The translations under genes and the position numbers were made by a program. Below the pieces are notes generated by a model, which searched no databases, had not been told where the DNA came from, and was given only the letters and a program-made list of their open reading frames with translations. Below are positions 20,611-56,174 of a stretch of DNA of 64,000 nt, piece by piece. The stretch comes from Raja brachyura (lineage: Eukaryota), in assembly GCA_963514005.1 (NCBI GenBank), contig OY740802.1:2604001-2668000 (forward strand), given 5' to 3'. The stretch's first letter is position 1. Each line of letters opens with the position of its first letter.

Positions 20611-20676
20611 TAACTTTACTACAACACGTTGCCACTCTCGAGGAATATCTAAGAATTTTGTAATGTCAAAGCTTTA

Positions 20677-25635: not shown

Positions 25636-25864
25636 GTAACACTACTAACTTACCTAAGGTAGATAAACATGCTGGAGAAACTCAGCGGGTGAGGCAGCAT
25701 CTATGGTGCATTTCGGGTCAAGACCCTTCTTCAGTCACCTATTCCTTCGCTCCATAGATGCTGCCTCACCCACTGAGTTTCACCAGCATTTTTATCTACC
25801 TTCGATTTTTCCAGCATCTGCAGTTCCTTCTTAAACATTTCGACTGCTATCTTATCTTGTCAAA

Positions 25865-26420
25865 AGGTAAGAGTGTTTCATTATCATGTGTCCCGGCAAC
25901 AGAACAATTAAATACTTCCTGCAGCTTTACAGACCCTTGTATTGTGATGCAATAACACACAAATAAATATACAATAATCAGTAAAACAATAAATTAATAA
26001 TCAATAATACTCGATAATCAGACCATAATGAGGCAAAACTGAAAACCAAACCAAAGTCCATAAGTAGGTCATAGTTGCTGAGATAGGGTTTGTGTTGTTT
26101 AGTGTTCAAGAGCCAGATGGTTGCTGGGAAGAAGCTGTTCTTCAACCTGGAGATCATGGTTTTCAGGCTCCTGTACCTTCTTCCTGATGGTAGCAAGGAG
26201 ACGAGAGTGAGGCCAGGGTGGTGTGGATCTTTGATGATATTAGAGTCCTTTTGCTGGCAGTGCCTCCTATTTGGATGGTGGGGAGGTCAGTACCAGTGAT
26301 AAACCGGGCAGTGTCCACCACTTTCTACAGACTTACATTTTTGGGAGTTCACATTGCCCTAATGTTGAGAGCAAGATTGTTGTTCTGGCATCATTCATTC
26401 GGATCATCAATCTCTCTCCA
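25865..26420 (-). mobile_element. Rex1/Babar-clade LINE 3' fragment; another at about 56900-57640 (+), split by a SINE
   Basis: LPSGRRYRSLKTMISRLKNSFFPATIWLLN C-terminal signature. Confidence 0.75.
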
Positions 26421-27099
26421 GTACTTTGTCCGATTCACCGTTCAATAATAGTAGCGTATGTCATTGCAGTCTCAGTGTCATTGCCAGCAGCTTTAGTGGC
26501 ATCCGCATGTTTGTTACATACAGGGAATCTGTGCCTCTATCATGAATAAAAATGGCTTGGTGCACTATACCAAATGCTCCTTTTCCATTTCGTGCCATTT
26601 CATGGGGATTTTTTAGGAGAACATGAGGGTGTTGTATTTGCTCAAGAAGGCTTCGAGCACAGCCTTCTGTCTTTTCAACCGTCCTCTGATCTCTTCCCAC
26701 GACAGAGCGAGGGGTAGGACAGGGCTTGTTTCAGGAGACTGGAGTGAAGCATGTGAATCATGCAGCCTACTAGCACGTCAATGGTGGTGACATGAGCGTG
26801 GGACAAGAGACTGTTACTGATTTGTTTATCCTTCCAGTGAATCATAGGGTCATAAGTGATAGGAGTAGAATTAGGCCGTTCGGCCCATCAAGTCTACTCC
26901 CCCATTCAATCATGGCTGATCCGTCTTCCCCTCTTAACCCCATTCTCCTGCCTTCTCCCGATGACCTCCGACACCTGTACTAATCAAGAAGATTAATCAA
27001 GAAGGATCTAGTGTATTTTGTGGAGGAAAGCTTTTGTAGTATCTTTTAAATGCATGAAGGTGCCGACAGTTAGTCCAGGTCTCAACAGGAGGGCAACTA

Positions 27100-27790
27100 C
27101 TGCTTTGTGTTTTGTGCCTTTTCTTCAAATGACCAAAGACCATGCTGCCGCATTGAAGGTGTTGCCGGATTTCAGCTGCGATGCCTGCCTTTGCTGAGAG
27201 GTGACTTCTGAGATGCGGGGATGCTTTCCGGGTCTTGCTGTCAACCTTTGTTGTTGTGCAGTGAGGCAGATTATCCTGCAGATGTTAAGTGCAGGACCCA
27301 TTCTCTCTAAAGCTTCACTGAACAAGTCAACAATGATTTGGAGCTCAGCCTCACAATGACATATGTCTGCAGACTGGAGCTCAACAACTGAGGTTGCAGT
27401 AACTGTGTTTCTGGAGTAGCAATGGTGCAAAGGAAGCCACATTTTCCAGGGTCTCACTGTGAGTCCACATCCTGCAAATGTTGAGTGCAAGACCAATCCT
27501 CGAGTATGCTTCAGTGAATTATCCAATGATGGCCTCTAACTTGGCCTTCCAATATACGCAAATGCTGGTCGGTAACCTTGATTCTTGAGCATGGTGAACA
27601 GCTTCCCTGTAGGTCTGAACTTTAGCTCCACATCTTCATGACATGACGACTCCCAGAATACTGCAACAAGCATAGGCTCCCCCATCCATTATGCACAGCT
27701 TTTATCAACGTCACAAAAGCTTTTGACTCCATTAATCGGCAGGGTCTGTAGAATACTCTCCCCTGGGTAGCTGCAGAAAATAGTTCTCAT
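27100..27790. mobile_element. RTE-clade LINE relics; also about 38700-39660 (+)
   Basis: Minus-strand ELQSAD..EAELQIIVDLFSEA..MGPALNI; plus-strand AFINVTKAFDSINRQGL. Confidence 0.65.
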
Positions 27791-27794
27791 CTTA

Positions 27795-28335
27795 AGGGCC
27801 TGTCCCACCAGCATGCAACTCTATGCGATGAGCGTGACCTAACGTGGTCGCTTGAGCCGTCCGGCGTCGCGGGGCCGGTCCCACTTCGATCGCCGGAGCC
27901 GTGCGAAATTGTGCGGAGTTCGTCCCGACATCGCGCGGGGTTCCGAAAAACTGACTATGTTCAAAAATTCAGCGCGGCAACGGCTTGTCGGCTCGCAGTC
28001 GCCTCGACGCATTACACACCGCCTCGACGTCATGCCTCCGTGACCCTCTATGTGTGTGGCTCCGTGGCCCTCTGTGTGTGTGCCTCTGTGCCCCTCTCTG
28101 TCCTGGCGAACTTACCTTTAAGACTTCGCTCCAAGTTCGCCTCACTTTGCGCCGCGTTGCGCCACTCACCCGACCTCCACTCGGCCCTCGCTGCCGGTTT
28201 GGTCGCGCTTGCCGCATGCAGGCGCATGCTGGTGGGAACGGCCCTGTACAGGGGATCACCCGACCTCTGCGCGGCCCCCGCTTCTAGTTTGATCGCACTC
28301 ATCGCATGGAGTCGGATGGTGGTAGGACAGGCCCT
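27795..28335. mobile_element. Harbinger-type MITE with duplicated right end
   Basis: TTA then AGGGCCTGTCCCACCAGCATGC; right ends GCATGCTGGTGGGAACGGCCCT (28245) and GGTGGTAGGACAGGCCCT (28335); CpG-rich. Confidence 0.8.
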
Positions 28336-28544
28336 TATGTTTGGTCCATGGAGGTGTACAAGTCTTCATTCCAACCAACATATCCACAGCAAAGCCAATC
28401 TCAGTGAGGAAATGTGTCAAACACAACTGTTTTGTTGCTCCCACTGTCTTTCTCATGACTGTGAGCATTCTAACCATTATGGTATAAACTAGTGCATGTT
28501 AGCAATTATCTACCCTTCTGTAAAGGATTATGGAAGGATTACAG

Positions 28545-29330
28545 AAAAATTCATGATAATCAGCCCAAGACAACATGTTTTTGTGAAAGAGAAACCATGT
28601 TTGACCAGTTCATTTGAGTTCTTTGCTAGAGTAACACGTATTATAGATAAAAGATAATCGAATATACCGTACTTAGAATGTCAGAGGACATTGACAAGTT
28701 GCTGCAATAAGGATCATTGCAGAAAATAAAAGGGGTGATATATTAACAAGGATAGAAGTTTGCTAACAGGCAACAGAAAATAAGCATAAATGTGCCTTTT
28801 ACCATTTAGCACAGGAATCAGTGCTAGGGCTTTAACCTTGTACAATTTGTATAAATCACCGGAATGAAGGAATGGTTGGTATATTTGCTAACGATACATG
28901 GAAAGATATGAAGGCAATTATTGAAGGAACATGAGGAGGCTGCAATGCGCGATATTCAATAAATTAAGAGCTGGCAATGGAGTATAATGTGGGGAAATGT
29001 GAAATGGTCCATTTTGGCACGAAAAATGAAAATAAACGTTATCTAAATGGTAATAGTTTGCAGAGCTCAGGGGTGCAGAGAGAACTGAATTTCCTAGTGC
29101 AAAGGATGAGTAAGTAGGTACAGCAAGTATTGAAATAAATACTGATTACAGAATCTTATCATTTGTTGCTAGGGTAATTGGTTGCAAAGGTTGGTGGGTT
29201 ATGCCTGTTATGTAATGTAAACCAAATAAGGGTTACAAGAAAAGGCTCCTTATTGAAAGGAAGTAAATGTGTCGGAAGAAGTTTAGACAATTTGTAAAGA
29301 AGCTGTGGCTTAATGGGATGGGCTTTACGT
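28545..29330 (+). mobile_element. Old CR1 RT fragment; similar relics at about 21930-22740, 30840-31319, 37365-37740
   Basis: Decayed QHVFVK..PCLT, FANDT and WQWSIMWGNVK-type sequence. Confidence 0.65.
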
Positions 29331-29794
29331 AGCACAATGCATGCACTGTGAAACAAACATGATGTGAAAGTGGATATACCCTCCAGTGATATCACCTCAA
29401 GTCAAATCTTTCCAACATTATTCATGGGTGTGGAGTACCTTCCTTACAGATTTCATATCTTCAGTTTCCCAAATCCGCTTGTAAATGACTAATGCCTGGA
29501 ATGGGAGGAATTCTTCCTGATGAAAGGTTGTGCAGACAGGCTTGTATCCAGTAATGATCAGAAGAGAGAGAGGACCTGGTGCAACATACAAGATCCTGAG
29601 ATGTCCTGACAGCATAAAATGATGCTGTTATACGTTTCACATAGGCCATTTGAGATTAGGTGAATTTTTTGAGTTGAGAGCCTGTGAACCATTTTTAAAA
29701 ATTGAATGGCAGTGGAAGCAGGACCTTTAAATATTTTACTTTTTATTTAAATATTTTATTTACACGGATGTAAATCATCCAATAAAGTTGGCTA

Positions 29795-29933
29795 GATAGA
29801 CTAGATAGCAGTCAGAAGAAGGCTCTCGACCCAAAACGTCACCCATCCAGAGATGCTGCCTGTCCCGCTGAGTTACTCCAGTATTTTGTTTCTATCTTTG
29901 GTTTAACCAGCATCTGCAGTTCCTTCCTATTTT
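29795..29933 (+). mobile_element. Penelope pseudo-LTR derivative (donor of the sequence captured at 42 kb)
   Basis: 13-bp TSD ATAAAGTTGGCTA at 29782-29794 and 29934-29946. Confidence 0.88.
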
Positions 29934-30114
29934 ATAAAGTTGGCTACTTCATCTTGCCCATTTGTTTAAACTTTGTATATTACAATAGGTCTTTATTTTA
30001 AAGTCGATCTCGCCCCCCTATCAGGATTTTCATTTCTGAGATTAACCGGATGATTGGAGGCACATGCATGGATAATATAAAATTCAGGATATTCAATTTA
30101 TATTGGTTTTGCTG

Positions 30115-30465
30115 CCATAAAGTGATACTGTGTGGAAACAGGCCCTTCGGCCCAACTCGCCCACATCGGCCAACAATGTCCCTTCTATCCTTGTCCCAGT
30201 TGCCTGTGCTTGGTCCATAACCCTCCAAACCTGTCCTATCCATGTACCTGTTCAACTGTTTCTTAAACAATGGGACAATGCCAGCCTGAACTACCTGCTC
30301 TGGCAGTTTGTTCCATACACCCACCACCCTCTGTGTGAAAAAGTTACCCCTCGGATTCCTATTAAATCCTTTCCCCTTCACTTTGAACCCATGTCCTCTG
30401 GTTCTCGATTCCCCTATTCTGGGCAAGAGACTCTGTGCATCTACTCGATCTATTCCTCTCATGAT
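30115..30465 (-). mobile_element. CR1/HER1-like 3' fragment; related pieces at about 1950-2335, 4310-4445, 4870-5025, 62190-62705
   Basis: RGIDRVDAQSLLPRIGESRTRGH...FFTQRVVGVWN; 3' end GGGCCGAAGGGCCTGTTTCC shared with the SINEs. Confidence 0.9.
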
Positions 30466-31319
30466 TCTGAGATCAATAAGGCTAAATTTACTCTCCCATT
30501 GTTGTCTTAATCTGCATATTACCTCTTGTCTTGTGTGTGAGTGTCTGTTATATTTAAGGAATCTACCAAACAGGGTTATCATGTCACCATTGTCATTAAG
30601 TCAAATTTGCTTTAAATATTTAACATGATAAAATGAGCACATAAGAAAAACATTTCAACAAGGGTCCCATCCCAAAACGTCATACATCCATGTCCTCCAG
30701 AGATGCTGCCTGACCCGCTGAGTGACTCCAGCACTTTGGGTCATTTTTTGCAAACCAGCATCTACAGTTCCATGTGCCTACATTTTAAGAAGTTTATTAT
30801 CTTTAAAAATAGACAATTCATCCGTGCCAGATAAAACATAGCCCAAGCTCTTAAAAGAAGCAAGGGAGATAGTTGAAGACAATTTTCCAATTCTCCCTGG
30901 CTGCAGTACCGGTGCGAGAAGCGAGCTAACACTGTACCGTTATCTAAAAACAAAGGTTGGGGAAAACCAAGTAATTATTGACTAGTTGATTTAACTTTGG
31001 CGCTGTTCAAAATATCGGAATCCATTTGAAGAGCCGGTATAAACCTTTTAGAAAGGTACTGATTAATCAGGAACAGACAGATGGATGGATTTGTTCAGTG
31101 AACGTGGTGCCGGACTGACTTGATTGAATGCATTGAGGGGGCAACAAGGAGAGTCACTGAGAGATGTGCGTTTATTGAAGACTGCACAGATTTTTAGCAA
31201 GCTTCTACATAGCAGGTGGAGGAACAAATTTGATGTACTACAATCCTTAAAGGAATCAGGACAAGTCACTAAGTTGGTTAAAAAGGCTTATGGGATATTA
31301 TATTTTATTACTTAAGGCA

Positions 31320-31844
31320 TCTATATATATTACTAAAACTCTCATCTTGTTTGTTTGTTTGTATGCGTGCGTGCATGTGAGTGGATTCCGGAAACTCCAT
31401 CAAAATGGTACACGATAGAGCTCCAAATTTTGGCCCACCTTACTCACCATTGTCCTGCGATGTAAATTAAACACGTTTTGTTCAGATTGATGGTATATTT
31501 TACAAGTTATTCACATTTTAAACTGTACAAAAAAAACACTTTCCAACATGCCCGTTTGACATCAGCCGCCCTTAACGTCACAATGACATTAAAATTTTTT
31601 TTTTAAACGCCATGTTTTCATTTTTCGTGTATACTTCCCTGGCCTCACAACGGGGACCCAACGGCTCAATGTATAATTTTGCTTCTACTTTACAAACACC
31701 TCCACGGGTCCTCTATTCACTTTATTAACTTTAACTTAATTTCAGCCGTCAACGGCAGAACTTTGAACGTGGCAGCTACGCATGCGCAATTTGGTGGAAT
31801 ATTGCGTTGGCAAAGCGGGCCGAAAAGGTCAGCACTTGACCTAG
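31320..31844 (+). mobile_element. Non-autonomous Helitron-like element
   Basis: Starts TC (TCTATATATATTACTAAAAC), ends CTAG, inserted between A and T without TSD. Removing it restores CR1-like AAGGCATAGAATATAAA. 5' TGTT microsatellite. Confidence 0.75.
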
Positions 31845-32223
31845 TAGAATATAAATACAGGGAGTAGGAACAAAAACTGCAGATGCTGGTTTATACCAAG
31901 GATAGACACAAAGTGCTAGAGTAACTCAGCGGTTCAGGCAACAAATCTGGAGAAAAACGATGGGAGAGGTTTCGGGTCAGGACAGATGCTGCCTGACCCG
32001 CTGAGTTACTCCAGCACTTTGTGTCTACAATTACTGGGGGGTTATTGCCAGTATTGCAAACAACACTAGTTTGGTCACAGATTGAATGCAACATACAGTA
32101 ATGTTCATCTTATTTCATGAAAGGTGCCTGGCAGCATAGAAGATACATAGGACATATGTGATGTGTAGGATGGCACTGCAGATGCTGGTTTAAACTGAAG
32201 ATAGACACAAAATGCTGGAGTAA

Positions 32224-32760
32224 AAGGGCTGTCCCACTGAGGCGACCTAATTGTTGAGTTTAGAAGAGTTTGCCCTCGACTCATACTCGCAGCATGGTCG
32301 ACACGAGGTCCTATGAGGTCTTTGTAACTCTCCTTCATGCTCGAGAGTAGTCCCCGCGTACTCGAGGCCTCAGCTACGTCGCGGTGTATTTTTCAACATG
32401 CTGAAAAATGCCCGCAAGTAAAAAAAGGTCTATATGTTTTTTACTCGAAGGTTTAGTCGAAGTAGATTGTAGTAGGTCGGCATGTTACTCGCAGGTAATC
32501 GAGGGTAGTCGAAGGTAATCGAAAGTAGTCAAAGGTAGTTGTAGATAGTCTTCAACATAGTTGAAGGGAGGTCGAAGGAGAACGAAGGAGGTCGTCTTCA
32601 CTCTCTACTATTCAGTGTCCAATTTTGCCGAAGCTAGTCTTCAACATAGTCTAAGGAGGTCGAATGAGATATTCTACATAGTTGAAGGAGGTCTTCAACA
32701 TGACACTTTTTCAAACTCTTCTAAACTCGCCAATTAGGTCCCCGCAGTGGGACAGCCCCT
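32224..32760. mobile_element. Harbinger-type MITE, inverted copy of 20108-20610, nested in a Penelope-type repeat
   Basis: Splits GCTGGAG-TAA-CTCAGCGGG at TAA (flanks TAA/TTA); interior is the reverse complement of the 20.1 kb copy. Confidence 0.9.
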
Positions 32761-34121
32761 TTACTCAGCGGGACAGGTAGCATCTCTGGAGAGAAGGAAT
32801 GGGTGACGGTTCGGGTCTGAAGAAGGGTCTCGACCCGAAACGTCACCCATTCCTTCTCTCCAGGCATGCTGCTTGTCCCGTTGAATTACTGCAGCGTTTT
32901 GTGTCTGTCTGCAAATGTGATGCTGGGTTTGGAAAATTGTCCCTGAGGAAAGACAAGATATGATGGGGTATTTACTTATAGGGGACACTTAAATCAAGGT
33001 TTATGCAATTTTGAAAGCCCTTACCAGACAAGATATAGTTTCCTTTAGCTGAGGAGTCAAAAACAAGGGATGCAATTTAAAATAACTTGGGGAAGGATTA
33101 AAGAAACCAGAGAGAACATTGTTAGCTCAATGGATGATATGGCTTTGGAATTCACTGCCCTAAAATGTTTGTCACATATAAGCAGTACTTGGACGTGCAG
33201 TTATAAAGCCATGACAATGGATCAAGTGTACGAGAACATTTTTGCAAATTGGCACGGACACAGAGGGTTGAATGGCCCACTGTGTCTATATTTTCAATGC
33301 TAATTCTATGATTCTGCATGCAATATGGACATTGGAAAACTATGAATCTGTTCAGAATCTCAACATTATTCAGGGTACAAATGTGTCACGGTGAGCATAT
33401 TCCACCAATGGCCAAAGCTAGACACATAAAGCTGGAGTAACTCAGCGGGACAGGCAGCACCTCTGGAGAGAAGGAATGGGTGACGTTTCGGCTCAAGACC
33501 CTTCTTCATCAATGGCCATGTCCACAGCAGCCTTGTCACCTGTCCAGAAGGGGACTGATGGAACAATGCGTAAGCATTGCCCTACCTGAACCCCCTCCCC
33601 CCCCACCAAAAGTATTACCGCCCACATCATCTCCTCTGTGACCCCCTCCTGATCGTTTCCCCCGACCTGGTACAGCTCATTACATCTGGCATGCATGGCA
33701 CACATTGGATTTGCACTCCGTTGAAGAAAGTTTATTCTTCCGTGTTGCCGTGGCACTCACGAGTTATCGTGTGAATTTTAATGAGGTTGGACCATTAAAA
33801 TATTTTGACATCGGAAAATATTTCAGCCGGCTGTCCCATTGCCCTCTTGGTCGTTAAAGTCTGATAGCCACCTGGTGAAGGGTGGCATACTGGAAAGAAA
33901 GCTTTAATTGCTTGTGACGTACTACAAATTGTGCACAATCATCCTTCTTTCTTTCAAGCCTGTTCTGAACAAATATACAATGTTGATGTGAAGGAAACTA
34001 GTTAATGCTGTGGCTAAAACTGCATCCTGATTAACCCTTAGATAGATTTCTATTAAGAAAATGTACTGAATTATTTCAATGGTAATATTAAAACCACTAC
34101 AAGTGGTTTTGGAGAGAATAA

Positions 34122-34313
34122 AGGGCCTGTCCCACTTGCGCGTCATTTGCGTGTCACGCAGATGGCGCACGAATATTTTGTACATCCCAAAATCCTGCGG
34201 CTCCACGCGCGACCACGCGTTGCAGCCTACGTCTCCACGCACGATGCCAGCGCGTCATGCGTCGTGACGTGTAAATGATCTCGCGCAAATGACGCCCAAG
34301 TGGGACAGGCCCT
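34122..34313. mobile_element. Short palindromic Harbinger-type MITE
   Basis: AGGGCCTGTCCCACTTGCGCGTCATTTGCG ... CGCAAATGACGCCCAAGTGGGACAGGCCCT; TSD imperfect (TAA/TTG). Confidence 0.85.
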
Positions 34314-35189: not shown

Positions 35190-35335
35190 CCACCCATTAT
35201 TCACACTTAGCTGCTGGACCTATCCGATTTTCATCCAGAAGCCAGGTTAGTTCCCACATCTACACTGATGACACACAGCTCTATTTCCAAGCCTCCTGTC
35301 TTGTCCACTGCTCTGCTTCCAATTGTCAGATTTCT
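35190..35335 (+). mobile_element. L2-like RT relic; another at about 39720-40080
   Basis: HIYTDDTQLYF, a decayed YADDTQLY motif. Confidence 0.6.
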
Positions 35336-35854
35336 TGGCCAATATCATTCAAACAAATTCATGTCCAAAAGGAAGACTGCCCGTTTGTACCATTCTACCA
35401 TCAATGGATTCCATCTTTATCTTAGCTTACCCGCGTTGTTACCCTGCCCCTGATTATCCCAATGCTCCCCTGACGTACCATTTGATTCTATCCTGCATAA
35501 ACTCTGGTCTTGTGTTTAATTCACATTATCCAGGTTTGATTAGTAAGGGTGTCAATGGTTATGGGGAGAAGACAGGAGAATTGGGTTCTTCTTCTTATCG
35601 AGTCCACGCACAAGACCAGAAATTGTTCAGCCAGAGCTGAACACACCTCTCGGCATCCGCACACAATGGTGTCTGTCTTGTCACTTCTTGTGCGTGGTGG
35701 TGGAAAGATTGGTGGAAACAGGGCCGTGCGTGAATGCTCTTTCCTTGACCCCGGAGAATGGGGTTGAGAGGGAAAGATGGATCAACCATGAGTGAATGGC
35801 GGGGTAGACTTGATGGGCCAAATGGTCTAACTCTGCTCCTATGACATGAACTTA

Positions 35855-37362
35855 CAGTGCCCTCTATAATGTTTGGGACAAAGACCCATCATTTATTTGC
35901 CTCTGTACTCCACAATTTGAGATTTGTAATACAAAAATCACGTGTGGTTAAAGTGCACATTGTCAGATTTTATTAAAGGGTATTTTTATACATTTTGGTT
36001 TCACCATGTACAAATTACAGCTGTGTTTATACATAATCCCCCCATTTCAGGGCACCATAATGTTTGGGACACATGGCTTCACAGGTGTTTGTAATTGCTC
36101 AGGTGTGTTTAAATGCCTCCTTAATGCAGGTATAAGAGAGCTCTCAGCACCTAGTCTTTCTTCCAGTCTTTCCATCACCTTTGGAAACTTTTATTGCTGT
36201 TTATCAACATGAGGACCAAAGTTGTGCCAATGAAAGTCAAAGAAGCCATTATGGGACTGAGAAACAAGAATAAAACTGTTAGAGACACCAGCCTTACCAA
36301 AGTCTTAGGCTGACCAAAATCAACTGTTTGGAACATCATGAAGAAGAAAGAGAGCACTGGTGAGCTTACTAATCGCAAAGGGACTGGCAGGCCAAGGAAG
36401 ACCTCCACAGTTGACGGCAGAAGATTTTCTCTATAATATAGAAAAATCCCCAAACACCTGTCTGACACATCAGAAACATTCTTCACTAGTCAGGTGAGGA
36501 TTTGTCAATGACCACTGTCCGCAGAAGACTTCATGAACAGAAATACAGAGGCTACACTGCAGGATGCAAACCACTGGTTAGCTGCAAAAATAGATGGCCG
36601 GGTTACAGTTTGCCAAGAAGTACATAAAAGAGCAACCACAGTTCTGGAAAAAGGTCTTGTGGACAGATGAGACGAAGATTAACTTATATCAGAGTGATGG
36701 CAAGAGCAAAGTATGGAGGAGAGAGGGAATTGCTCAAGATCCAAAGCATACCGCCTCATTTGTGAAACACGGTGGTGGGGGTGTTATGGCCTGGGCATGT
36801 ATGGCTGCTGAAGGTACTGGCTCACTTATCTTCATTGATGATACAGCTGCTGATGGTATTAGCATAATGAATTCTGAAGTGTATAGACACATCCTATCTG
36901 CTCAAGTTCAAACAATGAAGAAGGGTCTCGACCCGAAACGTCGCCTATCTCCTTCACTCCTTAGATGCTGCTGCACCCGCTGAGTTTCTCCAGCTTTTTG
37001 TGTAACCCTCATAATTCATTGGTCGGCGGTTCATTCTACAGCAAGACAATGATTCCAAACATACTGCTAAAGCAACAAGGAGTTTCTCAAAGCTAACAAA
37101 TGGTCAATTCTTGAGTGACCAAGTCAATCACCCGATCTGAACCCAGTTGAGCATGCCTTTTATATGCTGAAGAGAAAACTGAAGGGGACTAGCCCCCAAA
37201 ACAAGCATTTGCTAAAGATGGCTGCAATACAGGCCTGGCAGAGCATCACCAGAGAAGACACCCAGTAACTGGTGATGTCCATGAATCGCAGACTTCAAGC
37301 AATCATTGCATGCCAAGGATATGCAACAAAATACTAAACATGACTACTTTCATTTACATGAC
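35855..37362 (+). mobile_element. Second copy of the same Tc1 family, right end displaced
   Basis: TA then CAGTGCCCTCTATAATGTTTGGGAC left TIR with inner direct repeat CAGGGCACCATAATGTTTGGGAC. Disrupted transposase from ATG 36209, interrupted by a young Penelope-type insert at about 36916-37008. Confidence 0.95.
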
Positions 37363-37742
37363 CTTACAGTGGGAAGCAATATGGATCGATTATTTACAGC
37401 TTATATGAATGACTTAGATGAAGAGGATATAACCTGACTAGATTTATGTACAATATAATGCTCAGTGGAAAGGTAGCTGTTAGCAGGACACAAGAAAATC
37501 TACAAACTGATATAAATTGGTTCCACAAGGCAGTGGCCTGTCGGAATATATTATGAGAAAATGTAAGGTTTTGCATTTTAGGGCAAAGAGAAAATTAGAA
37601 TATATTTTGAACACTGAGAAGCTAGTAAATGTTGGTATTCAGAAGGTCCTTGGTGTGCTGTTCAAGAAATACAGTTCTAACAAACAATTAGGAAGGCAAA
37701 TGTTTTGTCAGCTTGTATTGCAAAGGGATTTGGGTGGAAAAG

Positions 37743-37876: not shown

Positions 37877-37879
37877 CTA

Positions 37880-41300: not shown

Positions 41301-41889
41301 CATTCGTCGAAACAGGGCGGACCACGTGAAGGTTGTAATCTCCCACCCCAAGAGTTAGGCGTCATAGCAAGACAAAATGATTTCATCTTGGTCACACTGA
41401 CCTTTGCTGAGAATCTATTCCTGTCTGTAACTGCATCCACTTCATCTCTCCTCTCTCTCCACCACCTCCCCCCCTTCTCTCCCCCCCCCCCCCCCCAAAC
41501 ATTCTCTTTCCATATTGAGAACTGCTGGTATGGTCTGCTTAAAGCAGCTATGAAAAAAGTCAAAATTAATACATTTTAATATTTTAATCTCCTGCAAATT
41601 AGCTTTAATTTGCAATGCTCTAAGTGGTTTTCATGGTTGCATCAGATATGGTAACACAGTCGGCAATTGACTGTAAATTTAGCCATGTGTGCAAAATTCC
41701 TGGGGAGGGTATACACTGGGAATTATTTTAATGGTAAATACTGGCTGATGATTAATGAGCCGTTTGACTACAAATCTGCTCATTTGTAACCTTCACAAAA
41801 TCTTCAACATGTCTTCTACATACACCCAAAGTGACCAAAGCCAAAATTAATTTGCTTATGCACTTTAAACTCAGCAGGCATAAATCTTT

Positions 41890-42182
41890 AGGAAAGAACT
41901 GCAGATGTTGGTTTAAACTGAAGATGGACACAAATTGCTGGAGTAACTCAGCGATGGGGGGTGAGATTGACTTTAAATTAAAGACCTCTTGTAATATACA
42001 AAGCTTAAACAAATGGGCAGGATGAAGTAGCCAACTTTATTTGTAGGAAGGAACTGCAGATGTTGGTTAAACCAAAGATGTTTTGGGTCTTCGAAGGGTC
42101 TCGACCCGAAACGTCACCCATTCCTTCTCCCCAGAGATGCTGCCTGTCCCGCTGAGTTACTCCAGCATTTTGTGTCTATCTT
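41890..42182. mobile_element. Composite Penelope-type insertion with captured intronic sequence
   Basis: 14-bp TSD AGGCATAAATCTTT at 41876-41889 and 42183-42196; interior 41956-42079 is the reverse complement of about 29894-30018. Confidence 0.9.
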
Positions 42183-42936
42183 AGGCATAAATCTTTGGTT
42201 CTTATTTGTGCAAAAAATAATAACAAACAATTAAAGTTGCATGTTTATTCCAAGTTCAGTTTATTCTATCCAATAAATAACACTTTGTAATTTAGAATCA
42301 TATTTTTGGATTCTGATCAGCTACATTTTTCGGATAGCAAGGCAAAAACACCACCCTAAAGATCAGGGCAATCCTATCAACAACTAGAGAGCATTCCTGA
42401 GCTACTATCTACCTCATTGGAGATCCTCGGACTACATTTAATCGGACTTTACTGGACTTTATCTGGCACGAAAGGTTTTTCCCTTTATCCTGAATCACTT
42501 TATCTGTACCCAGTAGATGGCTTGATTGTCATCATGAATAGTCTTTCCGTTGACTGGTAAGCACACAATAAAAGCTTTTCACTGTACCCCGGTACACGTG
42601 ACAAAAAACTAAACCAAACTAGATGTCATTTAACTGTAATGCAAAAAGTGTGTAACTCAATTTACCAGTAAATTTGAAGTCAAATCTCTTCCAGTCTTTT
42701 AAGTGGAAGATTAGTTCACCGACACTGCTCTATGAGACGAGATCGAATGTTTGCTGTAATTTGCAGACAGATTTGTTTCTCATATTCTTGTTACTGGGTT
42801 TTATTGTAATTCGAAATGTGGAGTGAGTGTTTGACTGATTATAATAATAATAATAATTCATCTTTGTCAATAATAAACAGTCTAAGATGTTTATGAAACT
42901 ATTGCAGTCAGTGAATACTGTAATGTGCTTCCACAG

Positions 42937-43092
42937 ACTGGAGATGGAGTCACAGCTAAGGAGAGCATCTCTCTGAAACGTGTGGCGGTTGTGGAGGATT
43001 TTTTCGACATTATTTATTCTATGCACGTGGAAACGGGGACAGAGACCGGGAGGACGGCGAAACACGCCGGCCAGAAACGGACTTATAAAGCG
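42937..43092 (+). CDS. NOL4L: NOL4L coding exon 2
   Basis: Acceptor ccacag|, 156 nt, TGDGVTAKESISLKRVAVVEDFFDIIYSMHVETGTETGRTAKHAGQKRTYKA, donor GCG|GTGAGC. Phase 0-0, in frame with exon 1. Not in the ORF track. Confidence 0.95.
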
Positions 43093-45263
43093 GTGAGCTA
43101 AAAATGCCTTCACTAATTCCTTAACTTCAATAAATCAGGGTTTCTTCGTTGAAGACATGAGAAACCACGGGTACTGGAATCTTGAGCAAGACACAACGTG
43201 CTGGATGGACTCAGCGGGTCAGGCAGCATCTGTGGAGGGAATGGACAGGCGACGATTCGAGTAGGGCTCTTGTTTTGAGACCCCGGAGAAAGGTCTGTCC
43301 AAGTCTGAGCTGAGTTCCTCCTGCTCTTTGTGTTTTGTTTACAATGTTGTTGTTATAATTTATTCCAACTTTATTTCAATCATAGAAATGGCTGCTCTGC
43401 TTGAGTATTATAACCACAATATAACTGGCATTTAGTTTAGTCTAGTTTAGGGATACAGTGTGGAAACAGGCCCTTCGGGCCATCAAGGTCTATACTGGTT
43501 ATATCACTTGTTCTATCCCACCCACGAGGGGCAATTTACAGAGGCCAAATAACCTACAAACTGCATGTGGGGGGGGGGGGGGGGGGGGGGAACCGGATCA
43601 CCCGGAGGAAAACCATGCAGTCACAAAGAGAATGTGCAAACTCCACACTGACAGCACCTGAGGTCAGGATTGAATTCGGGTCTCTGGGGCTGTGAGGCAG
43701 CAGGTCTGGCAGCTGTGCCACTGTCAAATGAGTCTGCAATGCCGAATATTTGAGAGGCCTTGGATAAAGGGTGAAGCTTAGATTCTCTAAAATGTGCTGT
43801 AAAGTAGCAAAGAGTGATTGGTGAAATTAGCGCTAAGGATCTGCTTGATGAATACAAATGTTGGACAGCATTTCACAAAGCTCACTGTTGTGTGGAGCAG
43901 AGTGCATTTATAAAACTATCTCTATTTCATGGTCATCTAAGTATTCACTTTGCAAATTTAAAATAAACTCAAGATAAACATACATGCTGGTGTAACTCAG
44001 CGGGACAGGCAGCATCTCTGGAGAAAAGGAATGGGTGACATTTCGGGTCGAGACCCTTCATCAGACTCACTTGCCTGTTTAGTTCAGCTTTGCATTTGCC
44101 ACTTTCCACTGTTTTTACATGGAGATACTGTTCAGCTTTATGCATAATGCTTCTAAATTGACTCTCCCCTCATTTGTGGGATCAAGTGTTTACCTGTATT
44201 ACATTTACGGGCGATATGTGAAATACTGTACAGGTTTAAAATTGAACAGTCGTCACATAGGGACAGCATTTTAATGACCAAAGTCTATATAATTAATTAA
44301 AAGAGATGTGTAAAGTACAGGTTTAAAATTGAACAAACCTTGCAGAGGGACAGCTTGTTTTACGTGCAGAGTCTATGCAGTTAATTAAACTGTATTTAAT
44401 GCAATGTATTAATCTGATGACCTGCTGAGAACTGTTTTGCTGCGATTCAGACTAGCTGCTTTTGGAAGAATAGTATTTTCCAGGAATCAGAATGAAATAA
44501 GCAACCAAAAGCCAATGATTCGATGCTCAGTCCTGTTGTTTATCTATAAATTCAGTCAATCACTCTGGTGCAAGTGTGATATTCATTAATAACTGCAGCC
44601 TCACAGTTTCAAGAACCTGGGTTTGAATTCGATCTTGTGCTGTCTGTGTGGAGTTTGCACGTTCTCCCTTTGGTTGGGCACTCTGGTTTCATCCAAAAAA
44701 CCCACAGTCTTGTTGATTGGGCTAAAGTAAACGACACTGTATTTAAGTGACAATTGAAAGGGAATTGCAGACACAAGGAACTGCAGATGCTGGAATAAAG
44801 GAATTTGATGGGCAGGTAAATTGCAAGGAAATAAGAAAAGTGGAATGGGATTGCTCTGCTGATGGAGTTCAGCATGAACTCAATAAGCAAGAGGGCCTCT
44901 TGTGTATCGCAATAGCTTTACAGAACTAAAATATCAAAGATTTGAAGTAATTATACTAAATTTTAGATATGTGCAGCATATGAGGTGAAACAGAGCTGGT
45001 GGTTCGCCAACCTCCATAAGCTAAATATAACAGGACCAACACTTTTCCCATTTTTTTAGTTGTTCAGATTAATGAATTCTTCATAATTGGTCAATTAAGT
45101 AAATAGCTGGAGTGGGGGAACCACTGTGGGGGAGCGGGAAGAACAATGGACACTCGGTATGGGGGGGGGGGGGGACAAAGGAGGAGCCGGCGTACTTTGT
45201 AACTTTGTCAGCACCTTGGGTATGCAAGCAAAGAATTTCACTGTGCCTTGCCACATGTGACAA

Positions 45264-48230: not shown

Positions 48231-49703
48231 CTGGGCACAGCACGGAAAAGCTTCTATACACAGCACAAACTTAGTGACTTTCATTTTTAATGGAAAAATA
48301 TACCTTTTAACCATCCTTGTTTCACTATATATCATTTTATAGACATGACAATATATAATGAAATTATCTAACATACAGTTAATGTAGAGAAAGCCCACTG
48401 CATTAAACAATTGCTACATCTACTGTGATTTTATTATGTTCAAAGTAATTTCAAGAATAAAGCTTGTAAAATCAGTCTAGTTTGTTACATATAACAGTTT
48501 GGTACGAGTTGTGAACAGAATAGAAATCAACCCGTCCTCCCAAACAATACAGGTGTATGCACAATTATCTATTGACCGTGATAATTTAACATCGTACTTA
48601 TCAATTATATAAAATCTTTAATTGTATCCTGTGTATTGCTGAAATGTATAATAAATCCTTTTAAAACATCAAGAGTACTTTTTTGTCGCTTGCTTATTTG
48701 CTGTTTCTTTTAACATGCCAAACAGTAGTGGTACATACATCAAATTAATTCATACTATCTTTTGCTTTAAAATGTAAAAAATGGTTTTACAAGTCTATTG
48801 CAAAAGGACTAATTAGGTCTTTGCGTGGGGTGAGGGTCATCTAATTAAAGTGGCCTTCTGCAGATTTAATCAATGAAGCACTATGCATCAAATCAGCATC
48901 TTCCTGAGGTCATCTGTTGCTGGCCCTAATTTGTTCTGGCCTTCCTTCGCCTCAAGTTTACTCACTCCCCCCCCCCCCCATCCCCCCCATCCCCCATGGC
49001 AGGTGTCATGGGTTGTTATAACATTAGACTCTCATGGTTGCTAATGCTGAACATTTGAGATATTTGTGGACTTTCTCCCTGTGGGTTTTATTCCGGGAGC
49101 ACCTGTTTCCTCCCACATCCCCAAGACATGAATCCAACGGGTAGCTGATATCTTTGATAATGTTTAGTATGAATGACGCAGACACAATTTATCTCTTATA
49201 TCTAAAGTAACTAACATACAACGGCTGAATTTCAAGATCACGGTTGTTATTTCGACTGCTTAATCTCTCAAAGTAAATTATATAACGGGCACAAAATGCT
49301 TTATATAATGCTTTATATTTGTGCCAGTTATATTTAGTGCAAATAGAGTGGTTAACATTTACTTCATGGTAAGCACTCATATTCTTTATTATAGAATGTC
49401 AGGCATTAGTGAGTATTATTTAAAAGAAACAAAGTACAATTTTCCTGTAATTATTCCAAGGATGATCTTGGTTTCTGTGGCAACCTCCAACTGGTGAAAA
49501 CTTCATATTACAACAAAAATTTTATCCTGATGCATCAACACGTAATGATTACACAGAGCAAGTTGTGAAGTGACAGGTGTTTAATAAGTGTGTAAGGTTT
49601 CTTTGTTGTCCTATTCTATTGTCTGCTTTCAATTGCAGATTGCCTTTGTAAATAAAATGGCAGCTTCATCCTAACTGGAATATTTTCCATTTCTTGAAAT
49701 CAG

Positions 49704-49815
49704 ATAGCTGAAACGTACGCATTCCTCCCAAGAGAAGCAGTGACAAGGTTTCTAATGAGCTGCACTGAATGTCAAAAACGAATGCACATAAACCCAAATA
49801 GTGTGGACTCAAAAG
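49704..49815 (+). CDS. NOL4L: NOL4L coding exon 3
   Basis: Acceptor aatcag|, 112 nt, IAETYAFLPREAVTRFLMSCTECQKRMHINPNSVDSK plus G, donor |GTAAAT. IAETY and CTEC are NOL4L-type residues (NOL4 has ISESY and CSEC, from memory). Confidence 0.95.
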
Positions 49816-49922
49816 GTAAATATAAAAGACTGCTGAACCTCGTAACTTTCTGCAGGAGCAGTTTTATTACTGATGTCCGGAATCAATAAATCATTATGCA
49901 CTTTATTTCATACATTTTTCAG

Positions 49923-50032
49923 AAAATGAAAGACCTTCATCACTGGCTGGGGTGATAGATTATAACATGCCCATAACTGCCACATACCTGAAACAGATGA
50001 AACTCCAATTTATGTGTGGATCTCAAGAACTG
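49923..50032 (+). CDS. NOL4L: NOL4L coding exon 4
   Basis: 107-nt intron, acceptor tttttcag|, 110 nt, (E)[36 protein letters not shown], donor CTG|GTAGGT. Phase 1 matches exon 3. No later exon was recognised, so the gene probably continues past the window. Confidence 0.93.
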
Positions 50033-51295
50033 GTAGGTTTGACTAAATACAAATGTTTCACATTTATGTATTATGTGATTTTGATCTGGTATAGTTCACA
50101 AAACTCATTTCTGCAAATATTTCAAAATTGGTGTTATCTTGATAACCTCAATAATATATTAAGTACAATTGGAAAATGTAAAATATTGTGACCAAGAACT
50201 TTCCATAGATTTTTGGGGATACTTACAAACGTCTTTGTTATAAAACTTATGGCCAAGAAGTTCACATTCATGTTTGTGTTGGTGAATGAATCACACACCT
50301 CATTTCCTTTATGCTGTTTAATAAATGTTCCTTTACTGATGTGGTTTAAGAGAGAGAATCAAGAATATGTAAATGTTGTATGTACACACAATGGAACAAT
50401 TAATTATTCCAATTCTTTGAAAAAACAGAATTACAAATCCTTAAAGTATGGAAAACAATATTCCCAAAAGCCTGGCCACTGAATGGAAAGGTAAACAAAG
50501 ATATAGATGCAGCAGGAGGAAATAATGTCGTGTGGAAAAGAGACTAGAAAGAATAAACACTACTTATTTTGTTTCATCCAATAAAGTTCTGCTTCGTAGC
50601 GGCCGAATAGCAAAGTATTTTTGCCAAGTCCATTTTCGGATGAGTTGTTGATTATATTTGATCGGGCATCAGTTTGAGACAAGCTTGCCCTCTGGTGTTA
50701 GGGATTTGTAATTAATGAAATAATTTGAGAAAAAATTCTATCTGTGGAAATACTATTATTGAGATAAAATAGTTGCATTAAAATATCTGAAAATGTGAAC
50801 GCTGCACATCTCAATGTTGTCGTTTTGTAATTATCTTCCCAGAATTTATAAACAAAAATAAACTGTAATAGCGATATTCCTCATCCGTTTGGCAACTTTA
50901 ACATGTATGATATTTAAACTGGCTTAGTGAGTAGTATAGTGTTTTGAAACAAATGTTGCTTTTGTGCAGAGACAATATTTTTTTAAATACAAAATAAATG
51001 GGATGATACTTCCTTGAAATGGAAGAAATAAATTTCAGACAATTGCGAATCGCTTTGTTAATGATACCAGAAAGATATGTTAAAACACTAATGCAAGACA
51101 GGCCATTGAGGTTTTTTTAAATAATCTACCATTTGCAAAATGTTATGCTGCAAGAAACTCTAGGTGCTGCACATTATTGAATTGCTTACAGAGATATTTT
51201 TAATGGCCTGGTTTGCAGAATGGAGAAGGATTGGATTTGTGAATCCGTTTGGAAATGAGTCTTTACTGAGGCTGGTGATGCCATTTGAGAGAGAA

Positions 51296-51420
51296 TGGGA
51301 AGGAGGAGGAGAGGTGGGGGTTGGAGGGATAAGAGGTGGGAGGGGAGGAATAGGTGGGGGGGAGAAGAGGTGTGGGGGGGAGAGAAGAGGTGGGGGGGGG
51401 AGAAGAGGTGGGGGGGGGAG
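51296..51420. repeat. G-rich degenerate tandem repeat
   Basis: Repeated AGAAGAGGTGGGGGGGG-like units. Confidence 0.85.
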
Positions 51421-51799
51421 TGTGAGAATGTGTGACGTTCTGCACAGCTGCTTGGAAATAACATCACCAGAATTTATGATAAAAATGTGAATTTGTAAAG
51501 GCATGGTGTCTTGGCAATTGACCCTGAATTGCAAATTTACAAGTTTGGTGCATCTCAGAATTATTGTTGCAAATATCTAGTTGTTTTATTAACTTTATAT
51601 TATTTCTCATACCTCTGGGTCTGCAAAGCATTTTTTCCCCTTTTATTTTGCACCAGAAACATTTTTTTTAATTTTGGTGCTATAGTTTCTGGTTTAGACT
51701 CTGGGTTGTAAGAAGACTTTTTCATTTTGAATAGTGGAATTGTTGTGCGATTGCTCTCTGTGTCGGTTCACGGTGGACATGATGCACTGAGAATGATCT

Positions 51800-52520
51800 C
51801 TGAATATATCAAATACATCAACAACAGATAATCCTATGACATTTTCGCCACCTCCAAAGGGATCCCACCACTGGCCACATCTTCCCATCTCCTCCCCTTT
51901 CAGCTTTCCGCAGAGACCGCTCCCTCCGTGACTCCCTGGTCAATTTGTCCCTTCCCAACCAAACTACTCCCTCCCCTGGTACTTTCCCTTGCAACCACAG
52001 GAAATACTACACTTGTCGCTTTACCTCCCCCCTTGACAACATCCAAAGACCCAAGCAGTTTTTCCAGGTGAGGCAGAGGTTCACCTGCACCTCCTCCAAC
52101 CTGATCTATTGCATCCACTGCTCTAGGTGTCAGCTGCTCTACATCAAGCGTAGGCCTGGTGTTCACTTTGCCCAACATCTCCGCTTGGTTCGCACTAACC
52201 AACCTGATCTCCCGGTGGCCCAGCACTTCAGAGTGGGTCCCACTGCAAATTGGAGGAGCAGCACCTCATATTTTGCTTAGGCAGTTTACACCCCAGCGGT
52301 ATGAACAATTTCAGGTAGTCCTTGCTTTCTCCCTACTTCCCCTCCCCTTCCCAGCTCTCCCAAAGCCTACTGCCTCTGCCTCTTCCTTTCTTCTTCCCGC
52401 CCCCCCCCCCCCCACCTACACATCAGTCTGAAGACGGGTCTCAACCCGAAACGTCACCTATTCCTTCGCTCCATAGATGCTGCCTCACGCGCTGAGGTTC
52501 TCCAGCATTTTTGTCTACCT
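51800..52520 (+). mobile_element. Penelope-like element 3' fragment: GIY-YIG endonuclease relic plus pseudo-LTR with hammerhead motif
   Basis: PGTFPCNHRKYYTC...QRFTCTSSNLIYCIHCSRCQLLYI..KRR...FAQHLR, then a pyrimidine-rich UTR and CTGAAGACGGGTCTCAACCCGAAACGTC, which continues as the abundant short repeat. Confidence 0.88.
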
Positions 52521-54604
52521 CTGAATTCATCAATTTGTGGCACAAATGTCTGCAAGCGGATCAAAGTGTAATGTGCTGTGGAGCCAGTTATCATTAGAAA
52601 TTACAAGCCTTTGGTTGTGACCAACTCCCCCAACACTTGGGATCCAAAAGGACAACAGTCGAGAAATTGTTATGTAATGCTGCTGTTATTATTAATGCTA
52701 CATGCATGATTTCTCAAAAACTGTATTTAAATAAAGCTGGGAATCTACCATGTGCATCTTGAAGCATGCAGATTTATTTTGAGGTCCTCGAAAAGACCAA
52801 TGCCTGAAGATGCACAATGTGGCGGATATGGTGTTTGGGGGCCCTGAGAAGAGCATCATGTTGTAACTGGGAATCAATTTTGGCTAGTTCTTAAAAATGT
52901 AATCTTCAATAAGACTTATCCGAGTAGATATCCAATAATGGGTTTGACAGCCTAGGATTAAGTACAGTACATCTGATCTGTTTGGATAGCATGCAAAACA
53001 AAGCTTTTTCAGTGTACCTCTGTACATGTGACAATAATAAAGCTGAACCTAGATCTGCTCAGGCCTTTATAAGTTATACAAAAGTTGGCCACTAACACTA
53101 TGAGGTCCTGCATCTACATGAAGAACCCTTACCATCTTCAGACCATGCTTTTCATAAGGTCACAAGTAATAGGAGAAGAATTAGGCCATTCAGCCCATCA
53201 AGTCTACTCCGCCATTCAATCATGGCTAATCTATCTCTCCCTCCTAACCCCATTCTCCTGCCTTCTCCCCATAACCCCTGACACCCATACAGTTGACAAT
53301 CATGTAACAGTTGTCCACACACTGTGTGCAAGTATGAGATGTATGAGAGACAGGATATGGAAAGATATTTTCAGGCTTTTAGATCAATGTGGTAAGTTCC
53401 CGATTGTACTTTGCTCTATTTTCATGGATATTCAATGTAGAACATAGAACATAGAACATAGAAATTAGGTGCAGGAGAGCCTGCACCGCCATTCAATATG
53501 ATCATGGCTGATCATCCAACTCAGTATCCCGTACCTGCCTTCTCTCCATACCCTCTGATCCCCTTAGCCACAAGGGCGACATCTAACTCGTAATGTATGT
53601 TACAAGACAAAAATTCTAGACAGTTGACTATGTAGATTTAAAAAAATTGGTGAGGTTTGCCTAACAGTGATGAAACTTGAAGTTGCACAGAGAAATTTGT
53701 GCAGTTTATAGGAGAGATATTTTTGCAGCGTGGTGTGCCCAGAACCAGTGTAAGTGACAAAAACATTCTTCCATCAATTAAACTGAAAACCCCTTATTCC
53801 AGCTGAAACTAAAATAAACCAGGAAGTATAAATTCATCATGAATTATGTACAGAGAAGAAAATGAAAGGAAAGAGAACATTTTAAGAACAAGAGAAATGG
53901 GATAAAAAAGTAATGAATAAATCGTAAAAAAACGATGCCAAACTTGAGCGTGAAATTTCCGGTTCAAATTTCTTTGCTTACAAAGATATTATGCCATCAA
54001 AGTGTCACATACAACTGATTGGATTAGTTTTTGAAATATGTTTGATCATATCTTAACTTTTACATCGTGCATGTGACTCTATATATTAGGAATTGTTACA
54101 TTGGAGCTGTTGAAAAATCAGGGCCATTGTCTTACTATCTATTTACATAATTATCACATATGCAGATGCTGGTTTAATAGACACAAAGTGCTGGAGGTAC
54201 TCAGCAGGTCAGGCAGCATCTCTGGAGAACCCAGGTGATGTTTCAGGTCGGGACCATTCTTCATGCTTCAGATCCCGGCCCAAAACATCACCCATCCAAG
54301 TAAGAAATAGGATTGGCCGTCTACTGTATTCCAGGTGGGATTGGTGAATGTATGTGGCCCATAGACTGCCATTTGTACACTTGGGGCTCTGGCATTATGT
54401 CAAGACTTGTGTATTTACATTCATTTGACATTTGTCAAAGCCTGTTGTATGCTCATTGGCTTGTGCAATGGATCCTGACATTTTCAGGACAGGAGGAGAT
54501 ACAACAGCTGCAATACCCTTAATTTTTCTGTGGATAGTATTCATTTTAATATCAGCAAAAAAGATATACATTAATTGTTTACAAAAGCACTTTCCCTTGT
54601 GTTG

Positions 54605-54907
54605 TTTAAGAAAGAACTGCAGATGCAGTTTGTGTGTTATTGCATTAAAGGGTCTGTAACGCTGCAGGAAGTAAGTATTTAATTGTTCCGTTGCCGGGAC
54701 ACATGATAATGAAACACTCTTAACACTTGACAAGGTAAGTTAGTAGTCGAAATGTTTAAGAAGGAACTGCAGATGCTGGAAAAATCAAAGGTTGACAAAA
54801 ATGCTGGAGAAACTCAGTGGGTGAGACAGCGTCTATGGAGCAAAGGAATTCCTTCACTCTGTGGATGCTGCCTCACCCGCTGAGTTTCTCCAGCATTTTT
54901 GTCTACC
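54605..54907. mobile_element. Composite Penelope-type insertion with captured intronic sequence
   Basis: 13-bp TSD TTCCCTTGTGTTG at 54592-54604 and 54908-54920; interior 54629-54755 is the reverse complement of about 25835-25963. Confidence 0.9.
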
Positions 54908-56174
54908 TTCCCTTGTGTTGGGAACTCACACACCCATCATTATGCAACCAGGATATAATTGTGAATACTTCATATTTTCTAATGACATAGAAGGATGTCA
55001 TTTAGAAACATAGAAAACATAGAAAAATAGGTGCAGGAGTAGGCCATTCGGCCCTTCGAGCCTGCACCGCCATTCAATATGATCATGGCTGATCATCCAA
55101 CTCAGTATCCCGTACCTGCCTTCTCTCCATACCCCCTGATCCGTTTAGCCACAAGAGCCACATCCAACTCCCTCTTGAATATAGCCAATGAACTGGCCTC
55201 AACGACCTTCTGTGGCAATCAAGTGTATCCCAGTGCTAAGTATTCCCATCGTTACCAATCTCTTTCACTCACTCAACACCTAGTTTTATTTAGTGACACA
55301 GCATGGAAACAAGCCCTTCAGTCCACTGAGTCCATGCTGACCATCGCTCATCCGTTTACACTAGTTCTATGTTATCTCACGTTCTCATCCATTCCCCACA
55401 TACTAGGGGCAATTTACAGAGGCCAATGAACTATAAACCCATCCGTCTTGGGGATATGGGAGGAAACAGGTGCTCCCAGAATAAAACACACAGGGAGAAA
55501 GTCCACAAAGACCGCACCCAAGGTCAGGATAAACCCATCTCTGGAGCTGTGAGGCAGCAGCTCTATGAGCTGCACCACTGTGCTGTGAACTGATCATACT
55601 GCCACCCACTTAAAATGGGGAAAATCTACAGTGATGTATTTTAGAATGTGGGAAGAAACAGGAGCAGTGGAAGAATCTCATGCACTGACAGGGAAAAAGT
55701 GCAAATTCCACACATTGTCCCTGGTGCCAAATTGAAATTCTCTGTAGCAGCGGCCTGAACTGATGTACCACCCGTCTCCAAGTTATCCAGAAAGATGTTG
55801 GGAGAATCTGAATGATATCAACATTGTTGAGGTGCTTGGCCATTCATAGGTCACACTGAGGTGCTTGATCATTTATTATTCCAGATACAGTGCATGTAGA
55901 TCAAGTTTAACATTAAAAAATGGGGAACCGACGAAATTCCGATGCTGGTTTATGAAAAAAGATACAAAGTGATGGAGTAACTAAGCGGGGCAGGCAGCAT
56001 CTCTGAAGCCGCATGGATAGGTGATGTATTGGGTTGGGATACTTCTTCAGACTGATATTTACTTTTTACCCGAAATGTCACCTATCCATGTTCTCCAGAG
56101 ATGCTGAGTTACTCCATCACTTTATTTTTTGGGGGGGTAAACCAGTATCTGCAGTACCTTCTGTCTGTTTTTTA

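Follow-up and report, generated by a model that had tools for sequence, protein, structure and literature searches.

The stretch of DNA analysed here, a window of 64,000 nucleotides from the skate Raja brachyura (contig OY740802.1; G000:C22:2604001-2668000 in a genome of 2.7 Gb), carries part of the gene NOL4L and many copies of a short repeat which, judging from its sequence, is the pseudo-long terminal repeat (pLTR) of an endonuclease-bearing Penelope-like element (PLE). The first coding exon of NOL4L (7046..7318, + strand), whose peptide is 96-97% identical to "nucleolar protein 4-like" proteins of two skates, fixes the direction of host transcription, and tblastn places exons 2 (42937-43098), 3 (49704-49814) and 4 (49892-50038) as well as further coding sequence from 66809 onward on the same strand. 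The parent element is present as a 5'-truncated copy (51840..52530, +) in which a decayed endonuclease frame continues into the pLTR; this copy itself gave no Pfam match, and a better copy (L113) matches the Pfam family GIY-YIG (PF01541) at the curated cut-off with an E-value of 1.3e-4. In the endonuclease frame a Cys cluster is located upstream of the GIY-YIG motif, and because a Cys-rich segment that separates reverse transcriptase (RT) from endonuclease has been described as a feature of the Neptune clade (PMC3846280), the arrangement suggests that the element belongs to this clade.

Two insertions of this pLTR, at 25.7 and 54.6 kb, are the subject of this report, the first (the donor) having apparently contributed its junction with the host DNA to the second (the daughter). 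The donor is composed of a left target-site duplication (TSD) of 15 nt (25641..25655, +), an inverted, tail-less pLTR arm (25656..25735, -), a direct pLTR arm with tail whose final 6 nt are the element's own continuation (25736..25842, +), and a right TSD (25843..25857, +) which, as the original prediction had it, has drifted from the left copy by three substitutions. Next to it lies the 3' end of a dispersed LINE (25858..26286, -; recognised by the end of its open reading frame and by its dispersed copies), of which 25858-25963 is the captured part. We take this LINE to be Rex1/Babar. The daughter is a single TSD-bounded unit with a shorter inverted arm, a tail at one end and host DNA framed by direct pLTRs. 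On the minus strand it consists of a TSD, a tail-less arm, a tailed arm, the donor TSD, 104 nt of donor flank, 2 linker bases, a 24-nt tail piece and again a TSD. Its ends are a direct repeat of 12 nt at 54592 and 54908 (left TSD 54592..54603, +; right TSD 54908..54919, +, the first two bases of which overlap the end of the arm). Between them follow the 24-nt pLTR tail piece that closes the insert, left unmentioned in the original prediction, one base off the donor tail and probably the first-made cDNA (54603..54626, -), the copy of the donor's 3' flank (54629..54732, -), the captured donor TSD in its older state (54733..54747, -), the tailed arm, collinear with the donor arm (54748..54849, -), and the tail-less second arm, which would represent a second cDNA (54850..54909, +). 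The hammerhead core-stem II-core pattern occurs at 11 places in the window, with a stem II that folds, and the arms of donor and daughter stop short of an intact sense motif; no Rfam hammerhead match was obtained in 25600-33000.

The relationship between the two insertions is carried by an alignment of 25656-25963 with the reverse complement of 54909-54629, which extends over 312 columns at 81% identity; in its flank part 112 of 130 columns are identical, with 8 substitutions, and in its arm part 89 of 96. This bears out the earlier claim that the 54.6-kb insert is the reverse complement of the 25.7-kb flank running into the repeat tail, with a small correction of the boundary: since 25837-25842 is element sequence and not flank, the captured host part is ~25843-25963, and the captured template measures 121-127 nt. 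The exact 15-mer of the donor's left TSD (25641-25655) is indeed found inside the daughter; the window holds exactly two copies of it, one at 25641 (+) and the other at 54733-54747 (-), against a chance expectation of 2e-4 matches, and no third copy occurs in the ~1.9 Mb of sequence examined. These comparisons support the capture of the junction of the 25.7-kb copy from a local neighbour, at a donor-to-daughter distance of 28.9 kb.

Local capture had been predicted to leave the junction at these two loci only, and a genome-wide search with 25831-25963 agrees: among the 40 matches listed of 365 first-look candidates, donor and daughter are the only full-length ones. The other 38 begin at query position 20 or later and belong to a dispersed LINE repeat of 75-92% identity, so that the flank is repetitive, as had been cautioned; at the sensitivity of the search, however, the composite does not form a dispersed family. 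In four other organisms single contigs run across the left junction of the daughter and on into the captured sequence, at a divergence of up to 4%, which speaks against both an assembly error and a recent origin; none of the four showed an allele of the daughter that was empty or free of the capture. At position 25855, the sole informative donor-side position, every contig examined from three of them (B, C and D) has the daughter's base, and among 28 dispersed copies of the flank repeat 19 score higher with the daughter and 8 with the donor. Both observations fit drift on the donor's side, and with it the proposal that the daughter keeps the older junction.

A second pair in the window, to which the original prediction had referred as case 1 (the 25.7/54.6-kb pair being case 2), is also real. 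Its donor and captured flank lie at 29801..30018 (+), and its daughter, with a 14-nt TSD and the same architecture as at 54.6 kb, at 41876..42196 (-); 29894-30018 aligns with 42079-41956, and no exon is bracketed. In both cases the outer tail piece of the daughter carries variants that are not in the donor. The two pairs had been taken as a sign of a systematic mechanism, and of this the recurrence has stood while the implied frequency has not: of the 137 tails in the 464 kb that comprise the window and its surroundings, only those of cases 1 and 2 share host flank, so that two pairs per 64 kb must be regarded as a local high.

The recurrence was seen in four exact searches of the genome for a tail-gap-tail pattern, which listed 18, 59, 38 and 52 matches (overlapping, and with one satellite array included), and at least 108 loci from these searches and 14 further ones were inspected. 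Most of them are neighbouring independent copies, tandems, or composites in which the element's own downstream sequence forms the spacer. Fourteen candidates outside the window with another kind of spacer were tested, and for seven a source lies within 0.6-53 kb: L082 (53 kb, direct, 98%), L095 (15.7 kb, inverted, TSD degenerate), L150 (2.4 kb, direct), L212 (0.67 kb, direct, pieces of both strands combined), L111 (12.4 kb, direct, diverged), L140 (0.63 kb, direct, with neither pLTR nor repeat at the source and only 6 nt of microhomology) and L259 (7.8 kb, direct, 82%, weak). Ten blocks were also scanned for local duplications of low copy number; of the 73 listed, 19 pairs or groups were inspected, and C12:47017317 (19 kb, direct, TSD-bounded) was added from them. 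Eleven finds of this kind were not counted, either because the PLE has its own TSD or because what the copies share is a different repeat (C22 block 102364, 72508, 212745, 237653, 281776, 172997 and 419638; C36a 24080 and 49764; C12 45759 and 33527), and three because no direction could be assigned (C29 12078, C29 85532 and a 904-nt pair on C4). A fixed tail-to-tail length of ~150 nt, considered at one stage, is ruled out by the observed 84-300 nt. Genome-wide searches, made for six candidates while the other finds came from neighbourhood searches alone, returned two sources, both local, and no convincing distant one. Local capture of host DNA is thus a real and recurrent by-product of Penelope insertion. 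The arm of a daughter is by itself a poor guide to its donor: by arm identity the 25.7-kb donor ranks only fourth of 474 tails for the 54.6-kb daughter, and elsewhere the ranks are 55, 7, 19 and 242, so that donors are not separated from ordinary copies, except at L212 (rank 1 of 474).

The strict class of captures, defined by a TSD, a tail piece, host flank and a pLTR at the donor, comprises cases 1 and 2, L082, L095, L150, L212, L111 and C12. Only three of these eight are inverted, and the donor tail of L212 is antisense to its gene, where the palindromic donor still provides a sense arm; the fixed geometry of a sense donor and an antisense daughter that had been proposed from the window is therefore not general, and long-range inverted repeats are a by-product and not the rule. 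What is shared is the position of the source relative to host transcription. Six strict cases lie in genes that can be oriented: two in NOL4L and one each in genes for an SSDP-domain protein, a Vps53_N protein, a CoA-transferase and a cyclase. L095 and the two C12 cases yielded no host gene, and base skew is too noisy for calling gene direction. We presume that the host loci include SSBP, SUGCT, ADCY and KLHL17. The source lies upstream of the daughter in every one of the six oriented cases (one-sided p 0.016; four of four, p 0.06, when the two cases of the window are left out). When looser PLE-associated captures are added, nine of eleven sources are upstream (p 0.03 one-sided, 0.065 two-sided), the additional ones being L259, C33:13261463, with an inferred start site, and an insert in NOL4L intron 5 at window-scale 126402.

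The process that could leave such scars may be sketched for the 54.6-kb insert, which we give an about even chance of being one TSD-bounded PLE insertion in the course of which the RT left its own RNA for the nascent NOL4L pre-mRNA close by. The element's endonuclease would have cut both target strands ~12 nt apart, as the TSD records and as the action of a related enzyme suggests (PMC11167929). One end would have primed on the tail of a pLTR RNA and copied the 24 nt that now close the insert, probably as the earliest step, after which a switch to the local template ~127 nt downstream of the donor tail could have allowed the flank, TSD, tail and arm found in the daughter to be copied. The other end would have primed at a second, tail-less start site, and the two cDNAs, whose arms meet at 54849/54850, would have been joined there. 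Two internal start sites account for a tailed and a tail-less end within one TSD, and as internal initiation alone would exclude the downstream flank, a jump is needed. The enzyme would come with its own RNA, prime on it and then switch to a nearby pLTR-bearing template, and the difference between the outer tail piece and the donor in cases 1 and 2 suggests that the switch was one between molecules.

Further evidence for such jumps comes from the composites made of the element alone. At least 20 bases of the element's own continuation form the spacer in 7 of 17 composites of one pattern search (6 of 16 without the reference locus), compared with 1 of 94 same-subfamily tails in a background of 1.46 Mb (Fisher p 4e-6), which points to template jumping on RNA as a routine activity of the enzyme; since templates with this continuation are rare in DNA, these composites are most simply made on element RNA. 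The step of which we are least sure is that the host template was likewise RNA, in the form of a tethered pre-mRNA, and not DNA; it is the combination of locality and upstream bias that favours it. As either target end can do the copying, sources are predicted to lie upstream in the host gene in either orientation. The wider proposal, in which the Penelope RT acts in cis on chromatin, is drawn to pLTRs in nascent transcripts and rewrites pieces of pre-mRNA into the same gene, up to ~50 kb downstream, is one whose chances we put somewhat below even.

Several observations weigh against this account. Two sources lie downstream of their daughters: for the insert in NOL4L intron 5 at 99875 the source is 2.7 kb downstream (76%, no TSD seen), and for C32:6564554, upstream of an SSBP-family gene, the sources are 17-21 kb downstream. 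Which copy is the donor and which the daughter was decided by eye, without blinding to direction, the numbers are small, and gene extents at the SSBP, SUGCT-like and ADCY-like loci are inferred, the donor at the SSBP locus being located just upstream of the start codon. The captures found are all intronic or intergenic and short, none spans a splice junction, and the inserts at L212 and C32:6564554 mix both strands, which one sense RNA cannot supply; the claim of a pre-mRNA template made in the original prediction is accordingly favoured by the polarity and opposed by these two features. For seven of the 14 candidates (L157, L086, L097, L106, L158, L257 and L118) no source was found: none within 50 kb of L157, L086 and L097, none within 5 kb of L158 or in the 48-kb contig of L257, and, for L106, a weak match on another contig. 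The genome-wide searches for L111, L106, L118 and L157 were also blank, and these blanks are soft, because the diverged source of L111, 12.4 kb away, was later found by local BLAST. Finally, local templated insertions free of PLE sequence exist, so that ordinary repair leaves similar scars here.

The two-strand mosaics and the reverse-direction cases would be more readily explained if, in the same kind of PLE insertion, the growing cDNA had moved to a genomic DNA template close by, with proximity and pLTR homology as its guides, as has been proposed for templated insertions of L1 (10.1101/2024.08.27.596794; PMC11702581). We consider this origin rather unlikely, since it would not by itself predict the upstream bias, the published L1 templates are typically at most 15 bp from the insertion site as opposed to 0.6-53 kb here, and the cDNA would have landed downstream of the donor pLTR, in a stretch that shares no homology with its end.

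An insertion event is not required at all if a pre-existing TSD-flanked copy broke within its tail and was repaired from a nearby copy by duplication-dependent strand annealing (DDSA), leaving a remnant of the tail outside. The identical order of parts is expected from such a repair, the homologous repeat that it needs at the template end is present for the 25.7/54.6-kb pair, a few other copies are at least as close to the daughter arm as the donor is, and, with neither an empty nor a capture-free allele seen in four organisms, the events may have followed another order. A young inverted copy of 575 nt (98%) at C17:5539755/5556712, 17 kb apart, which is bounded by SINE homology with a direct repeat of ~140 nt and has no PLE end, is what the mechanism described in PMC3276153 would predict. 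However, DDSA predicts host-flank spacers, whereas spacers of the element's own sequence are ~40-fold enriched over their share of genomic tails; it cannot make L140, which has no homologous repeat at its source, and it predicts no direction bias. On balance we judge DDSA an unlikely origin for the insert, and prefer the RT jump during a PLE insertion.

Whatever their origin, the two copies bracket NOL4L exons 2-4, as had been claimed and as the tblastn placement confirms, and might have been kept because they pair in the pre-mRNA and drive editing or the circularisation of these exons. Their predicted duplex is strong (-431 kcal/mol, compared with -114 for shuffles), the pair ranks second among 96 inverted matches of intron 1 with intron 4, and it is present in four other organisms. 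Against this, each copy is predicted to fold on itself (-92 and -138), the distances of the copies to the splice sites are 17 kb and 4.6 kb, the copies have drifted to 81-86% identity with indels, and exons 2-4 are spanned by 25 inverted repeats with a length of at least 60 nt and an identity of at least 80%, of which this pair is only one. A function of this kind is therefore very improbable, and the 54.6-kb insert itself is probably inert. Least of all do we credit an origin as a dispersed repeat-TSD-LINE composite family or as a chance match between common repeats, which the repetitive flank could have suggested and which, for this pair, is refuted at the sensitivity of the genome search by a junction found at two loci only and by the low chance expectation of the 15-mer. 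For other copies unlinked composites may exist, given the weak match of L106 and two loci on different contigs, L141 (C15) and L143 (C18), that have a tail junction of 12-14 nt and an internal variant in common; the latter are a possible unlinked donor-daughter pair or composite subfamily.

The window and the loci inspected contain further structures related to the pLTR. Two pLTR tails at 9220-9283 and 10633-10696, inverted and 1.4 kb apart, have 14 further flank bases in common and are possibly a third small capture; the tail at 10633-10696 sits tail to tail with another copy. At 8371-8910 three pLTR arms surround ~200 nt of non-element sequence, the source of which was not found in 8000-11200. 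Two copies of a Tc1-like transposon (11183-12633 and 35853-37371, with DDE_3 and HTH matches) are each interrupted by a pLTR, and a short element with terminal inverted repeats is present in inverted copies at 20105-20615 and 32219-32763, the second inserted in a pLTR. The 107 nt at 12745-12851, located between 17-nt direct repeats, are a 78% match to sequence flanking a Tc1-like end that lies 104 kb downstream, and were later invaded by a pLTR arm with its own TSD. The remaining long self-matches within the window are ordinary transposon copies. Elsewhere, L120 (C32:6571126-6572448, just upstream of the SSBP-family start codon) and L256 (C55:6610300-6611100) are clusters of four copies of a pLTR with the same flank, in tandem or inverted, as from repeated local re-copying at one site, and at C38:20738190-20739710 a 94-nt pLTR-end unit has given rise to a satellite with at least 16 copies. 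Locally templated insertions, 120-360 nt long, which lie between direct repeats of 11-100 nt and have no clear PLE end, are found at C29:5641738/5643951, C36:22999514/23001183 and C22:2506840/2476508. Exons on either side of NOL4L (C22:2465000-2520000 and 2792000-2820000, both on the - strand) presumably belong to DNMT3B and ASXL1, which their peptides resemble, and the open-frame pieces at C4:111555000-111565000 resemble what we assume to be an LTR retroelement or provirus.

The capture of host DNA by PLEs has already been published, and it is the locality and polarity of the capture that we have not found in print: in the literature searched, with subscription journals outside its coverage, there is no account of a kilobase-range, polarised capture by these elements. 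In 3' transduction by L1 the 3' flank of a source copy is carried along; the skate insert differs in having no poly(A), in a flank that is re-capped by the tail of another molecule, and in that daughters lie near their source. The 3' flank of the source copy also travels with the repeat in L1/RNA chimeras (PMC13174262). The closest precedent is the rotifer Adineta vaga, where host DNA has been found between two direct pLTRs with an inverted arm and a TSD, with spacers of captured host DNA in Pen1, and where read-through transcripts and template jumps have been proposed (PMC3846280). Like the skate captures, these consist of pLTR-framed host DNA with the whole unit in one TSD; unlike them, they come with neither a demonstrated local source nor a stated direction in the text consulted, whereas the skate sources are 0.6-53 kb away and mostly upstream in the host gene, and the skate captures often include the neighbouring copy's own TSD. 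A shorter inverted arm, a tail and a TSD are known from PLE insertion units (PMC3846280; PMC8557442). The protein of PAc, a Poseidon element of the green anole, cuts and extends both target strands, and two internal RNA start sites bound the tail (PMC11167929), which gives tailed and tail-less ends matching those of the daughter; template switching or host capture is not described in the available text. Templated insertions of L1 resemble the skate case in the size of the template (<250 bp; 121-127 nt here), and "twin priming and 3-prime switching" transfers L1 cDNA downstream on RNA (10.1101/2024.08.27.596794; PMC11702581), but the former are somatic, belong to another element class and use near-site DNA, typically at most 15 bp away as opposed to 28.9 kb here. 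Repeat-guided copying of a repeat and its flank into another repeat copy, as in DDSA (PMC3276153), differs in needing a pre-existing homologous copy, involves no RT and, as described there, predicts no polarity.

The scars described here bear on how PLEs finish their insertion and on whether the locally templated insertions of retroelements generally are copied from RNA or from DNA. On an annotated skate genome they would provide a countable test of it, in the distance, direction and strand of the source relative to host transcription. If the upstream bias holds, it would represent natural evidence for the reverse transcription of tethered pre-mRNA in the vertebrate germline. If, in addition, the Penelope RT does act in cis on chromatin, the genome would be a polarised fossil record of co-transcriptional retro-copying in the germline, and the same process would offer a route for duplicating intronic sequence or small exons within a gene.

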